DNA from: a virus
Lineage: Duplodnaviria; Heunggongvirae; Uroviricota; Caudoviricetes
Virus record (IMG/VR): IMGVR_UViG_2740892489_000001
Reading direction: 5' to 3' (one strand)
DNA length: 49,169 nucleotides
Position numbers and translations under genes: made by a program. The notes under the pieces are model-generated. The model saw only the letters and a list, made by a program, of their open reading frames with translations, had not been told where the DNA came from and ran no database searches. Shown here piece after piece: positions 7,749-11,291 of this stretch (position 1 is the first letter of the stretch; each line of letters begins with the position of its first letter).

Positions 7749-8171
7749 TTAAGAGGCTTTTTTGTTTTTTTCTTTCGTGCTAACTCTTCGTAAATTGCAT
7801 TGTACTTCTGTTTTTTTCTCCTCAAGAGTTTTTAAAAGTTCATCTGTCTCACTGTCAGGGAGCTCGTCCAGAAGGTCAATGATGATTTTTTGTCTTGGAT
7901 TTAACTCCTGATAGAAACGTATCTGTCCACTTTCTTCTGTATCCTCTCCCAAAAGATAGGTTGGTGTTGTTCCAATGAGTGTTGCTAATTCCCTTAATTT
8001 CTCTCGGCGAGGAATTGTTTCACCATTAAACCATTTGCTAACCGCTTTTGGTGTTAATTTCATTCGACGGGCAATTTCTGCCTGCCTTCCATGTTGTTCA
8101 TAACCAGCGTTTTCACAGGCTAGCGCAAGCCTACTGGCGAACTCTTTACGCGCTTTATCTTCATGAACCAT
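7749..8171 (-). CDS. racR: Prophage repressor, XRE-type HTH (RacR-like)
   Basis: HTH-like segment AEIARRMKLTPKAVSKWFNGETIP; divergent from the Cro-like gene; C-terminus passes two A7 runs so the exact end is uncertain. Confidence 0.7.
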   Translation of the reverse strand: MVHEDKARKEFASRLALACENAGYEQHGRQAEIARRMKLTPKAVSKWFNGETIPRREKLRELATLIGTTPTYLLGEDTEESGQIRFYQELNPRQKIIIDLLDELPDSETDELLKTLEEKKTEVQCNLRRVSTKEKNKKAS

Positions 8172-8250
8172 AAGTTCAATGATATTCGCTCTTGAATGTA
8201 CTGTCAGTTCTGTTATAGCATGTACTCAAAGTTCACATTGTGAGGATGAT
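8172..8250. promoter_or_regulatory. Divergent promoter/operator region between repressor and Cro-like gene
   Basis: AATGTACT (8195-8202) and CATGTACT (8219-8226); possible -35 TTGAAT / -10 TATAGC for the rightward gene. Confidence 0.4.
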
Positions 8251-8505
8251 ATGAACCAGAAAACACTTGAAGATGTAATCAAAACTGTTCGCGTTTCTGT
8301 TGTGGCCGACGTTTGTGGTGTCAGCCAAAGAGCAATCTACAAATGGATGGATAACGGAAAATTGCCTCGCACAGAATATACCGGCGAAACAAATTACGCT
8401 GAAAAAATCGCTCATGCATCAAACGGATTATTTTCTGCCGATGCAATTTTAACTATTGGCAGAAATAAAACTACTACGAAAAAGCTGATGGGAGTTGATT
8501 CATGA
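8251..8505 (+). CDS. Cro/YdaS-like HTH protein
   Basis: MNQKTLEDVIKTVRVSVVADVCGVSQRAIYKWM HTH; GAGGA Shine-Dalgarno before ATG 8251. Confidence 0.6.
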   Translation: MNQKTLEDVIKTVRVSVVADVCGVSQRAIYKWMDNGKLPRTEYTGETNYAEKIAHASNGLFSADAILTIGRNKTTTKKLMGVDS

Positions 8506-8924
8506 AAATCAAGCATGAGCACATCGAATCAGTGTTGTTAGCCCTGGCAGCCGAAAAAGGGCAGGCGTGGGTCGCTAACGCAATTACTGAAGAATATCTG
8601 CACCAGGGGGGCGGCGAATTGCCCCTGGTACCAGGCAAGGACTGGAACAATCAGCAGAATATCTATCATCGTTGGTTGAAAGGTGAAACGAATGCGCAAA
8701 GGGAAAAAATTCAGAAACTGATCCCTGCGGTTCTGGCAATTCTTCCTCGCGAGCTGCGTCACCGACTCTGCATCTTCGATACCTTGGAACGCCGTGCATT
8801 ACTGGCGGCACAGGATGCACTGAGTACGGCAATTGATGCGCATGATGATGCAGTCCAGGCCGTTTACCGTAAAGCACATTTCAGCGGCGGCGGTTCTCCT
8901 AGCGATTCTGTCGTAGTGCATTGA
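8502..8924 (+). CDS. YdaT-like (CII-position) regulatory protein
   Basis: 140-aa ORF overlapping the upstream stop (ATGA); position as ydaT in Rac. Confidence 0.5.
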   Translation: MKIKHEHIESVLLALAAEKGQAWVANAITEEYLHQGGGELPLVPGKDWNNQQNIYHRWLKGETNAQREKIQKLIPAVLAILPRELRHRLCIFDTLERRALLAAQDALSTAIDAHDDAVQAVYRKAHFSGGGSPSDSVVVH

Positions 8925-9001
8925 TTGAAATTAATCGTACCGAACTGTTTTGTTCGGTATCAGTTAAATGTAACGCTGCGAGCGTTACAAGGTGAAAACA
9001 A

Positions 9002-9790
9002 ATGGCTTCAAACTGGATAAAGCTCGAAGTTATTACGCCGGATAAGCCGGAAATATTCAGGCTTGCTGAGATTCTGAATATTGATCCAGATGCCGCATTA
9101 GGGAAAGTCATTCGCTTCTGGGCATGGGCGGATCAACAAATGATAGACGGTAACGCAGAGTGTAACGCTCGAGGCGTTACAAAAAGTGCAATAGACCGTA
9201 TCACTTTTATGGCTGGTTTTGCTGATGCGTTAATTCAGGTTGGATGGCTGGTCGAAAGTGATGGAGTGCTTTCACTACCAAACTTTGAGCGTCATAACGG
9301 AAAAAGCTCGAAAAAACGGGCGGTTACAAACGAGAGAGTTACAAAAATACGCGAACTGAAGCGAAAAGGTAACGCTGCCAGCGTTACACAAACGGATCAA
9401 AAAGCGTTACCAGAGGAAGAGGAAGAGGAAGATATAAATACTGATCTCCCCCTAAATCCCCCTCGGCAAAAACGAGCGTCTAAACAATTCGAGCCGGAGG
9501 CCATTGCTCTGCCCGACTGGTTGCCAGAAACACTCTGGAATGAGTGGGTCCAGTTCAGGCAGGCATTGCGAAAACCGATTCGAACGGAGCAGGGCGCTAA
9601 CGGGGCGATACGGGAACTGGAAAAATTCCGCCAGCAGGGTTTTACCCCTGAGCAGGTGATTCGACACAGCATCGCCAATGAATACCAGGGCTTGTTCGCG
9701 CCGAAAAGTGTTCGGCCTGAGACGTTGCTCCGACAGGTTAACACTGTCTCGTTTCCGGACAGTGCGATCCCGCCAGGCTTCAGGGGGTAA
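9002..9790 (+). CDS. Replication initiation protein, O-like
   Basis: 262 aa with acidic linker EEEEEED; iteron-like repeats inside the coding region; followed by DnaC-like gene. Confidence 0.7.
   Translation: MASNWIKLEVITPDKPEIFRLAEILNIDPDAALGKVIRFWAWADQQMIDGNAECNARGVTKSAIDRITFMAGFADALIQVGWLVESDGVLSLPNFERHNGKSSKKRAVTNERVTKIRELKRKGNAASVTQTDQKALPEEEEEEDINTDLPLNPPRQKRASKQFEPEAIALPDWLPETLWNEWVQFRQALRKPIRTEQGANGAIRELEKFRQQGFTPEQVIRHSIANEYQGLFAPKSVRPETLLRQVNTVSFPDSAIPPGFRG
9149..9410. repeat. Iteron-like GTAACGC / GCGTTAC repeats (candidate ori)
   Basis: GTAACGC at 9150 and 9162, GCGTTAC at 9174 and 9404, palindrome GTAACGCTGCCAGCGTTAC at 9369-9387; similar palindrome at 8970-8988. Confidence 0.6.
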
Positions 9791-9796
9791 CTGACC

Positions 9797-10543
9797 ATGA
9801 AAAATATTGCGACAGGCGGCGTTCTGGAACGTATCCGCAGACTGGCCCCGCCACATGTAACCGCGCCATTCAGGACGGTGGCGGAGTGGCGCGAGTGGCA
9901 ACTTGCAGAAGGCCAGAAACGTTGCGAGGAGATCAATCGCCAGAATCGTCAGTTGCGGGTGGAAAAAATTCTGAATCGCTCCGGCATCCAGCCGTTGCAC
10001 CGCAAATGCTCGTTTTCGAATTACCAGGTGCAGAACGACGGCCAGCGATACGCGTTGAGCCAGGCGAAATCCATCGCCGATGAACTGATGGTCGGGTGTA
10101 CAAATTTTGCGTTTAGCGGAAAACCTGGTACCGGAAAAAACCATCTGGCGGCGGCTATCGGGAATCGCCTGCTGAAAAACGGTCAGACAGTGATTGTGGT
10201 TACCGTGGCTGATGTTATGAGTGCTCTACACGCCAGCTATGACGACGGGCAATCAGGCGAAAAATTTTTGCGGGAACTGTGCGAAGTGGATCTGCTGGTT
10301 CTTGATGAAATTGGCATTCAGCGCGAGACAAAAAACGAGCAGGTGGTACTGCACCAGATTGTTGATCGCCGGACAGCGTCGATCCGCAGCGTGGGGATGC
10401 TGACAAACCTGAACTATGAGGCCATGAAAACATTGCTCGGCGAGAGGATTATGGATCGGATGACCATGAACGGCGGGCGATGGGTGAATTTTAACTGGGA
10501 GAGCTGGCGCCCGAATGTTGGTCAGCCAGGAATTGAGAAGTAA
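9797..10543 (+). CDS. DnaC-like helicase loader ATPase
   Basis: Walker A GKPGTGKNHLAAAIG and Walker B LLVLDEIG. Confidence 0.85.
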   Translation: MKNIATGGVLERIRRLAPPHVTAPFRTVAEWREWQLAEGQKRCEEINRQNRQLRVEKILNRSGIQPLHRKCSFSNYQVQNDGQRYALSQAKSIADELMVGCTNFAFSGKPGTGKNHLAAAIGNRLLKNGQTVIVVTVADVMSALHASYDDGQSGEKFLRELCEVDLLVLDEIGIQRETKNEQVVLHQIVDRRTASIRSVGMLTNLNYEAMKTLLGERIMDRMTMNGGRWVNFNWESWRPNVGQPGIEK

Positions 10544-10565
10544 TTTTTACCGGGAGGAAATTTTA

Positions 10566-11291
10566 ATGGAGACCGTTTTTGACGCACTGAAAGCAATGGG
10601 AAAAGCCTCTTCCCAGGAAGTGGCAGCACGTCTGGGAATGACCCGGGATGAGGCGATTAACGAGCTGTGGAAACTGAAGCGTCGTGGGGAAGCTGATAAC
10701 AAGGGCCCGATGTGGTGGTTGACTCAAACCGACGAAAACGCATCTGTAGCACAGGCTTCTAAAGTGACAGCGCAAATGCTGATCGAGGCGATTGAACAGC
10801 ATGGCCCTAAAGCGGCTGATGAACTTGCACTGATATTCAGAATTACTTCCCGCAGGGTGAACTCATCGCTGGCTATGGCCATCAGCAAAGGTCGTCTGAT
10901 TCGCGTAAATCAGAACGGTAAATTTCGTTACTGCCTGCCGGACGGTAATTTACCAGCAGAGCCGAAAGTTGTATCGGTAGTGAAAACACCTGGTAAAGGC
11001 TTTCCTCAGCCAGCCGGTGTTGCGTTACCAGTACAGGAAGCGGCAACACAGGAAGAAATTAAAACAGATACTGTGGGGGACATTGTGCAGTCACTACCAT
11101 CGTTCACTGAAACGCGAGCCAATGACCTGATTATACCATCGCTGCAAATGGCAAACCGCGAACTGCGCCGGGCGAAAAGTTATGTCCAGAAGTGGGAGCG
11201 AGTCTGCGCCGCGCTGCGTGAGCTGAACAAGCACCAGGATATTGTCCGTCAGATTGTCGATTCCTCCAGTCGTATTGTGTCGGAAAAGTGA
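10566..11291 (+). CDS. Hypothetical protein with two winged-helix-like segments
   Basis: GGAGG Shine-Dalgarno 8 nt before ATG 10566; 241 aa. Confidence 0.5.
   Translation: METVFDALKAMGKASSQEVAARLGMTRDEAINELWKLKRRGEADNKGPMWWLTQTDENASVAQASKVTAQMLIEAIEQHGPKAADELALIFRITSRRVNSSLAMAISKGRLIRVNQNGKFRYCLPDGNLPAEPKVVSVVKTPGKGFPQPAGVALPVQEAATQEEIKTDTVGDIVQSLPSFTETRANDLIIPSLQMANRELRRAKSYVQKWERVCAALRELNKHQDIVRQIVDSSSRIVSEK

Follow-up and report, generated by a model that had tools for sequence, protein, structure and literature searches.

In phage P22 (gene 18), phage SPP1 (gene 38/G38P, oriL), and plasmids of the iteron/Rep type, the replication initiator binds repeats that lie within or alongside the gene encoding it and adjoin a readily opened stretch of DNA, and the iterons of plasmids are tandem direct repeats bound by monomers. 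The origin of phage lambda (ori) includes four annotated 18-bp dyad iterons (e.g., ATCCCTC-AAAAC-GAGGGAA) at positions +348 to +432 of gene O. In Escherichia coli, oriJ is a known active origin of the Rac prophage (PMC3945230), and DnaT forms filaments on single-stranded DNA (ssDNA) that mark the site of helicase loading (PMC13377028). Here, we analyzed a 49,169-bp stretch of Caudoviricetes DNA (IMG/VR record IMGVR_UViG_2740892489_000001, hereafter "the window"), focusing on repeats of the heptamer GTAACGC and its complement GCGTTAC in and just before a gene for a putative replication initiator, an allele of ydaU. The host element is a Rac-like E. coli prophage. The window carries three perfect 19-bp palindromes of the form GTAACGC-N5-GCGTTAC, and comparison across related loci suggests that these palindromes, together with an adjoining purine tract and a short AT-rich stretch, probably constitute a lambda-style prophage origin, the sites of which would be bound by the protein of the gene that contains them.

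The components of this putative origin are listed below, with positions numbered along the window.

9002-9790, plus strand: initiator gene (ydaU allele), 262 amino acids (aa), matching PHROG 2509.
8970-8988, no strand assigned: upstream palindrome GTAACGCTGCGAGCGTTAC (GTAACGC-TGCGA-GCGTTAC), intergenic, with its 3' end 13 nt before the initiator ATG.
9150-9156, plus strand: additional half-site GTAACGC in direct orientation, preceding the next half-site by 12 bp.
9162-9180, no strand assigned: intragenic palindrome 1, GTAACGCTCGAGGCGTTAC (GTAACGC-TCGAG-GCGTTAC), in the codons of the N-terminal domain (N-domain) loop at aa 47-60, G-N-A-x-x-V-T.
9320-9342, no strand assigned: degenerate half-sites (weak evidence), GCGGTTAC at 9320-9327 with one base inserted and GAGTTAC at 9336-9342.
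9369-9387, no strand assigned: intragenic palindrome 2, GTAACGCTGCCAGCGTTAC (GTAACGC-TGCCA-GCGTTAC), at the boundary between N-domain and linker.
9404-9410, minus strand: terminal half-site, reading GCGTTAC on the top strand and located 23 bp past the half-site before it, with one C between it and the purine tract.
9412-9432, plus strand: purine tract AGAGGAAGAGGAAGAGGAAGA, i.e., (AGAGGA)3AGA, 21 nt, ~48% G+C, encoding EEEEEE.
9433-9464, no strand assigned: AT-rich TATAAATACTGATC followed by C-runs TCCCCCTAAATCCCCCTC, the AT-rich part being TATAAATA at 9433-9440.

Exact GTAACGC/GCGTTAC heptamers occur 15 times in the window, compared to an expectation of 4.5 ± 2.1 and a count that none of 100 shuffled sequences reached, and 8 of these 15 fall within the 440 bp spanning 8970-9410. 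When GTAACGC-N5-GCGTTAC was searched with up to two mismatches, three copies were recovered in the window for 0.07 expected, all of them perfect and all within 8970-9387. The sequence-only reading that had pointed out these repeats located each of them correctly (8970-8988, 9150-9156, 9162-9168, 9174-9180, 9369-9387, and 9404-9410), but treated those at 9150-9180 as separate heptamers, overlooking that 9162-9180 is a full, perfect 7-N5-7 palindrome. The half-site at 9150 results from a 12-bp duplication, which adds four codons (ECNA) within a protein loop relative to Uetakevirus-like homologues, and the degenerate half-sites at 9320-9342 may be decayed sites.

Conservation of these sites was evaluated by comparing site positions in 24 loci from ~12 genera, scanning 23 homologous loci for the upstream copy, and scanning one genome per species, which covered 19 loci from about a dozen Enterobacterales genera. 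Across the 24 loci, perfect or near-perfect GTAACGC-N5-GCGTTAC palindromes were found at -32 to -44, +148/160, and +357 to +412, with a freely varying N5 spacer. The upstream copy (-32 to -44; perfect or with one mismatch) was present in 13 of the 23 loci, wherever an intergenic gap exists, and missing from the 10 in which the upstream gene abuts the ATG; the palindrome at 8970-8988 thus looks like an optional third site. Both intragenic palindromes occur at unchanged offsets, with different spacers, in BUCT554, ST11-OXA245phi3.2, ZX5, and the Stx phage TL-2011b (67-70% DNA identity). The arrangement of three half-sites at +148, +160, and +172 was also seen in 11 of 22 other loci, and the extra half-sites of Enterobacterales loci share the 12-bp spacing. 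The distances between sites (207-264 bp) offer too few independent values for a reading of helical phasing. An origin predicted from the window alone presupposed that homologous initiator genes would carry the repeats as well, and they do, at the same positions down to ~45% protein identity, while a motif scan of relatives showed that the palindromes are kept in phages of Enterobacterales, Xanthomonas, Pseudomonas, and Ralstonia.

Since two of the three palindromes lie in coding sequence, where the window reads both in one frame (G-N-A...V-T), the repeats could be taken to reflect a constraint on a G-N-A-x-S-V-T peptide, or chance, without any function at the DNA level. However, third-codon positions in the palindrome arms were nearly invariant across 25 non-redundant genes (GGT in 22 of 23, AAC in 25 of 25, and GTT in 23 of 23), whereas other synonymous sites vary freely, with top-base fractions of 0.30-0.78 at the third positions of other conserved residues and 0.32-0.40 for other four-fold degenerate Gly codons. 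Palindrome 2 is furthermore read in different frames, as GNAASVT in the window and VTxTAL in Uetakevirus-like homologues, because the window, in a nucleotide alignment with Uetakevirus-like phages, lacks 2 nt before it and has 11 additional nt after it. The peptide also falls in a low-confidence loop of the predicted protein structure, and the three sites observed contrast with the chance expectation given above. Taken together, the invariant synonymous positions in the arms, the two reading frames of palindrome 2, and the existence of one non-coding copy show a constraint acting on the DNA and not on the protein. The palindromes are hence strongly conserved at the DNA level, and an explanation by coding constraint or chance is effectively refuted.

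A second conserved element, the purine tract, starts one base after the last half-site in nearly all loci. Its sequence is AGAGGAAGAGGAAGAGGAAGA in the enteric group and (AGAGA)4-5, encoding REEKRRE, elsewhere, with a conserved, all-purine length of 21-26 nt. Among 179 non-redundant loci, defined by distinct N-domain DNA after two further scans of viral contigs, the longest purine run in the tract part of the gene has a median length of 23 nt and reaches at least 18 nt in 118 loci, compared to a median of 8 nt (95th percentile 12) in control 240-bp intervals from the same loci, and the 8 nt preceding this run are mostly AGCGGACC, CGTTACCT, or GCGTTACC. Arg codons inside the tract were all AGA (18 of 18) in seven phage loci, five of which have 57-64% G+C, compared to 5% AGA (20 of 402) outside of it, and the tract is therefore selected as DNA. 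We presume that the tract at 9412-9432 serves as an unwinding or ssDNA-loading element, and that palindrome 2 is part of the putative origin core. An AT-rich stretch had been described as following the repeats: this applies to TATAAATA at 9433-9440, but not to 9412-9432, which is purely purine and has ~48% G+C. The G+C fraction over 40 bp drops to 0.375-0.40 at the stretch after the repeats, compared to ~0.47 window-wide, and 9428-9457 is the least stable 30-mer of 8800-9900. A GATC site and C-runs recur after the AT-rich stretch in several homologues. No convincing match to a DnaA box, an IHF consensus, or an oriC-like 13-mer was detected in 8900-9520, and the lack of DnaA box and IHF consensus there would fit a self-contained, initiator-driven origin.

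Several additional features were observed downstream of the tract. The GATC (Dam) site at 9443-9446 is found at the same place in six other loci (L002, L010, L020, L022, L107, and L111), and further GATC sites lie at 9083, 9131, and 9395; these may bear on methylation or SeqA. The paired C-runs at 9447-9464 (TCCCCCTAAATCCCCCTC; CCCCCC-N3-5-CCCCCC elsewhere) encode P-x-N-P-P, might be selected either at the DNA level or for a proline-rich linker, and coincide with the boundary of homology to the DUF1376 allele described below. Initiator variants of 376 aa from E. coli and Salmonella (P0026 and ~45 similar clusters) contain a linker insertion of ~114 aa (THPKPF...KKFDPLSV) directly after the origin core, following the residues that match window position 9446. 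This insertion had no Pfam match; its motif GRIDIVV...IELD...K looks like that of a PD-(D/E)xK nuclease, and it is possibly a mobile or homing element.

The sequences of these sites can also be set against the N-domains encoded around them. We searched each of the 179 loci, in an unbiased manner, for the most repeated hexamer forming an inverted pair, and such a motif was found in every locus, with 96 loci of the TAACGC type and 79 of the GTCCGC type. The 99 loci nearer to the window N-domain have on average 6.0 TAACGC hexamers between -100 and +480, compared to 0.23 per 580 bp of flanking DNA, and the 80 loci nearer to the N-domain of phage epsilon15 have 7.2 GTCCGC hexamers, compared to 0.31 in flanks. 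The N-domain reached phages of Xanthomonas, Pseudomonas, Ralstonia, Vibrio, and Salmonella by tblastn. At 45-50% identity, CP2, VW-6S, PAN70, and QkW1 carry (G)TAACGC-N5-GCGTTA(C) near +148 and a second site near +345 to +385, which is a perfect palindrome in QkW1 and consists of spaced half-sites in the other three. Raharianne (~40% identity) has GTAGACG-N6-CGTCTAC at +153 and +369, and epsilon15 and phiPSA1 (33-34% identity) have (T)GTCCGC-N7-GCGGAC(A) at +65 and +344 to +364. The first intragenic palindrome of this GTCCGC class (L110, epsilon15; L111, phiPSA1) is at +65 rather than +150, so that the distal site has shifted its position inside the part coding for the N-domain, whereas the core preceding the purine tract stays fixed. 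Three exceptions to the TAACGC and GTCCGC types have palindromes of their own: GTAGACG-N6-CGTCTAC, TGTCACA-N7-TGTGACA in one Vibrio phage, and GTTGCGC-N5-GCGCAAC in one metagenomic bin.

A natural domain swap was observed in phage 683R6 (vB_EcoS-683R6, L005), which combines a window-like C-terminal domain (C-domain; the C-terminal half of the gene has 86% nucleotide identity, the protein-level likeness being judged by eye in an alignment) and a YdaV-type loader with a DUF1376 N-domain. This phage has no GTAACGC site and carries instead five copies of CAGATGTTCAAACA in the linker-coding region. The corresponding repeat family, (A/C)AGATGTTCAAACA, is represented in the linker-coding region (1146-1463 of L005) by five direct copies, spaced 33 and 12 bp apart, plus an inverted one, and these repeats are likely the iterons of a K-12-type Rac origin, perhaps oriJ. 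Neighboring genes vary among phages sharing the same sites, with cII/YdaT-like, methylase, KilAC, or Roi genes upstream, and DnaC-like, lambda-P-like, or DnaB genes downstream. The sites therefore change with the clade of the N-domain and follow neither the host nor the neighboring genes nor the C-domain, and their sole constant partner is the N-domain of the protein encoded around them.

This distribution bears on two other readings of the palindromes. Several DNA-binding proteins are encoded beside the sites, and the cII-like YdaT, the module's own repressor or Cro protein, YdaV, YdaW, or else a host factor could bind them in place of the initiator. Yet the GTAACGC palindrome is absent from the racR-ydaS operator region and from the rest of the 49 kb, regulators and loaders are unrelated among phages with a common site, and it is the N-domain of the phage, not its host, that determines which type of site is present: enterobacterial phages include members of both the TAACGC and GTCCGC classes, and the TAACGC class extends to phages of Xanthomonas, Pseudomonas, and Ralstonia, making a different binder very unlikely. 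The YdaT/cII-like protein was rejected as a candidate binder because its published box, (A/T)TGATT-N6-AATCAA, through which the reverse racR promoter of K-12 Rac is activated (PMC11879457), differs from the palindromes, and its match in the window, TTGATT-CATGAA-AATCAA, sits at 8495-8512, overlapping the start codon of the ydaT-like gene (8502). Alternatively, palindrome arms that differ between clades yet stay complementary might indicate RNA hairpins in the early-operon mRNA, acting in stability, processing, attenuation, or translation of ydaU. Each palindrome would provide a 7-bp stem and a 5-nt loop, the upstream one is located just before the ribosome-binding site, and 9369-9387 and 8938-8959 were terminator-like in a simple scan, on the minus strand only. 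The arm sequence itself is invariant within a clade, however, beyond what complementarity demands, the solitary half-sites and 12-bp direct repeats, including the terminal half-site at the tract, have no pairing partner, and the palindromes are not followed by a sense-strand T-run, all of which leaves an RNA-level role very unlikely.

The initiator protein itself matched PHROG 2509 ("replication initiation protein", E 3e-89) over residues 1-262 (profile 1-277), whereas a Pfam scan of its 262 aa matched no family, including PF04492, PF07120, Rep_3, and Phage_rep_org_N. It is organized into an N-domain (~aa 1-123), an acidic disordered linker (~124-168; disordered at 137-159 in AlphaFold2), and a C-domain (169-262). 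In an AlphaFold2 model built from a 116-sequence alignment (mean pLDDT 78), the N-domain was confidently predicted to comprise helices (16-25, 29-46, 61-68, and 73-80), then a beta hairpin (84-91) and a basic helix (103-123), and palindrome 1 encodes precisely the low-confidence loop at aa 47-60. A fold search with the N-domain returned weak winged-helix-type matches only, suggesting an uncharacterized helical fold weakly similar to winged-helix domains, which we presume to be the origin-binding domain. Residue differences between TAACGC- and GTCCGC-class proteins cluster at 9-31, 42-47, and the loop (including E9, T12, D14, K15, E17, D30, A31, W42, and Q46), which suggests helices 16-25 and 29-46 as the reading head, as a lead in which phylogeny is confounded with class. 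The C-domain, modeled as a three-helix bundle, aligns to residues 89-179 of E. coli DnaT (PDB 2ru8, phmmer E 5e-4, aa 170-262), and its C-terminal tail VNTVS-PDS-IPPGFRG is identical to that of DnaT. The corresponding Pfam family PF17948 was detected in homologues (BUCT554, 3e-17; epsilon15, 1e-12), while the window protein itself had no match to the Pfam DnaT model at E 0.01 or better and a weak match to NCBIfam DnaT in its tail. Based on these alignments, the C-domain is DnaT-like.

The closest known counterpart of this locus is lambda ori. Both have multiple ~19-bp dyad sites of the 7-N5-7 type inside an initiator gene, and in both the origin (putative in the window) lies in the part coding for the linker and the junction between the DNA-binding N-domain and the loader-recruiting C-domain, the window core being at +367 to +408. 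Both also have a purine run on the coding strand (18 nt in lambda, AAAAGAAAAAAGAAAAGA, ~20 bp after iteron 4; 21 nt in the window, 1 bp after the last half-site), and site specificity that resides in an exchangeable N-domain module in lambda and covaries with the N-domain here. On the other hand, the window sites form three clusters ~200 bp apart, one of which falls in N-domain coding sequence and another upstream of the gene, where lambda has four tandem iterons. A DnaT-like C-domain is paired with a DnaC-type loader in place of lambda P, and the purine tract is G-rich and not clearly AT-rich. The lambda-like arrangement proposed by the sequence-only reading, with an origin inside the initiator gene, is thus well supported by comparative evidence from DNA-level conservation, N-domain covariation, and the layout of lambda ori. 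Its description of the gene as "O-like" is appropriate by analogy, but homology to lambda O was rejected: no PF04492 match was found (lambda O itself scored 5.7e-36 in the same scan), hhalign gave a probability of 0.3%, and BLASTP an E of 0.47. By sequence and analogy, the element would work like lambda ori/O while lying outside of the O protein family.

Other described systems share parts of this organization. E. coli DnaT (primosomal protein I; PF17948, PDB 2ru8 and 9zbt) has a corresponding C-terminal ssDNA-binding domain, but reaches forks through recruitment by PriA/PriB and oligomerizes through an N-domain of its own, whereas the DnaT-like domain of the window protein is fused to a putative sequence-specific origin-binding domain. 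YdaU of the K-12 Rac prophage occupies the same place in a Rac-type module, with a closely similar C-domain and the same YdaV loader. It has, however, a DUF1376 N-domain (PF07120, 8.7e-26 for the K-12-type allele in 683R6), so that only the C-terminal half is shared, and the repeats of K-12-type YdaU genes differ as well (five copies of CAGATGTTCAAACA, no GTAACGC). Finally, the general principle of an initiator acting on repeats in or next to its gene is common to the proposed origin and to P22, SPP1, and plasmid Rep/iteron systems, but in contrast with plasmid Rep/iteron systems and SPP1 G38P, the window repeats are palindromic and dispersed, and the protein has no Rep_3 or Phage_rep_org_N match.

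These observations are consistent with a three-step initiation scheme for a two-domain initiator, composed of a helical DNA-binding N-domain and a DnaT-like C-domain. First, N-domain dimers would bind each GTAACGC-N5-GCGTTAC, and single subunits the extra half-sites 12 bp apart, as suggested by the DNA-level conservation of the sites and their change with N-domain clade. Second, the cluster at 9369-9410 would set the initiator against the purine tract (9412-9432) and TATAAATA (9433-9440), while the two distal sites (~200 and ~400 bp upstream) may be brought in by DNA looping, or may act in autoregulation. Third, the duplex would open at or next to the purine/AT-rich stretch, and the DnaT-like C-domains would hold the single strand and, with the DnaC-like YdaV, load the host DnaB, a step proposed based on homology and gene context. 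Four considerations weigh against a lambda-style origin. The sites are distributed in three clusters over ~440 bp, compared to ~100 bp of packing in lambda. The AT-rich part is short, and the predicted duplex stability of 9428-9457 is only ~1.8 standard deviations below the window mean, outside of the least stable 1% of the 49 kb. Both large specificity classes correspond to deep clades of the phylogeny, which leaves few independent events behind the association of site and clade, i.e., ~five site types and the DUF1376 swap. Lastly, literature searches on oriJ/ydaU, the origin of epsilon15, phage initiators with DnaT-like domains, and the motif returned nothing on this family, neither binding nor origin-activity experiments.

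The position of the upstream palindrome also raises the question of whether these sites are operators only, through which the initiator or another regulator would control ydaU-ydaV by roadblock or autorepression, with the origin located elsewhere. With 13 nt between its end and the ATG, and the Shine-Dalgarno sequence AAGGTG directly adjoining it, the upstream copy occupies a typical place for autoregulation, and intervals of ~200 bp between sites suit looping-type repression. No sigma-70-like promoter was predicted on the plus strand near this palindrome. We consider an exclusively regulatory role improbable, as the upstream copy is the dispensable one (missing from 10 of 23 loci) whereas the two intragenic copies are conserved, and as the conserved junction of half-site, homopurine tract, and AT-rich stretch has no obvious regulatory rationale but mirrors lambda ori. 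Autoregulation and origin function are mutually compatible, and the principal alternative left is a role in autoregulation for some or all of the sites, especially the upstream one.

Within the lambda-style origin, we tentatively raise a more specific possibility, namely that the last half-site, the C that follows it, and the 21-26-nt homopurine repeat, (AGAGA)n or (AGAGGA)n, form a two-part unwinding module resembling the DnaA-box/DnaA-trio combination. Initiators anchored at the half-sites by their N-domains would then extend a filament of DnaT-like C-domains along one strand of the tract, each subunit interface taking up two nucleotides as it does in the DnaT preprimosome, thereby opening the origin and marking the site of DnaB loading. 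If true, this would define a class of phage initiators built on a replication-restart protein fold, with a dedicated single-strand track written into the coding sequence of an acidic linker.

The sites are surrounded by a Rac-type immunity and replication module, in which the following genes flank the initiator.

7749-8171, minus strand: helix-turn-helix (HTH) repressor.
8179-8505: Cro/YdaS-like gene.
8502-8924: YdaT/cII-like gene, ATG at 8502.
9797-10543, plus strand: YdaV-like DnaC-type helicase loader (NCBIfam PRK12377, 4.6e-152; DnaC, 6e-91; PHROG 50).
10515-11291: DUF1627 gene, ydaW-like, overlapping the end of the DnaC-like gene by 29 nt.

The YdaV-like loader is the presumed partner of the initiator C-domain. 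The DNA of the initiator gene is 98% identical to "ydaU" of the Rac record MN652886, and the region was found in 786 of 5,426 complete E. coli genomes, where the gene is always annotated as "hypothetical protein", its only annotation in RefSeq as well. In viral contigs, the initiator family is abundant, each scan returning at least 550 confirmed matches. Proteins P0110 and P0107 are fusion or deletion products in which initiator fragments are joined to DUF1627. The initiator open reading frame is shortened to 210 aa in L006 and L007 (Shigella flexneri and E. coli ECMA0423), probably decaying prophages, with the three palindromes intact. A hairpin between ydaT and the upstream palindrome (8938-8959; TACCGAAC-N6 (tgtttt)-GTTCGGTA) was set aside as incidental: its changes in L006 and L007 are non-compensatory, it is absent in other genera, and it is terminator-like on the minus strand only, with no sense-strand T-run after it.

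While the general architecture described here is classic, we found no description of this origin or of the site specificity of its initiator in the searchable literature. The proposed pairing of an origin with its cognate initiator would provide a testable replicon for Rac-like prophages, for Uetakevirus (epsilon15/phiV10-like) phages, including the Stx phage TL-2011b, and for phages of plant pathogens (Xanthomonas, Ralstonia, and Pseudomonas). The presence of at least five half-site types on one fold would offer natural specificity variants for studying how an initiator reads DNA. The putative fusion to an origin-binding domain would also link the ssDNA-filament domain of DnaT, recently visualized in replication restart, to origin-dependent initiation, and the strictly conserved homopurine tract within the coding sequence represents a clear overlap of protein and DNA codes.

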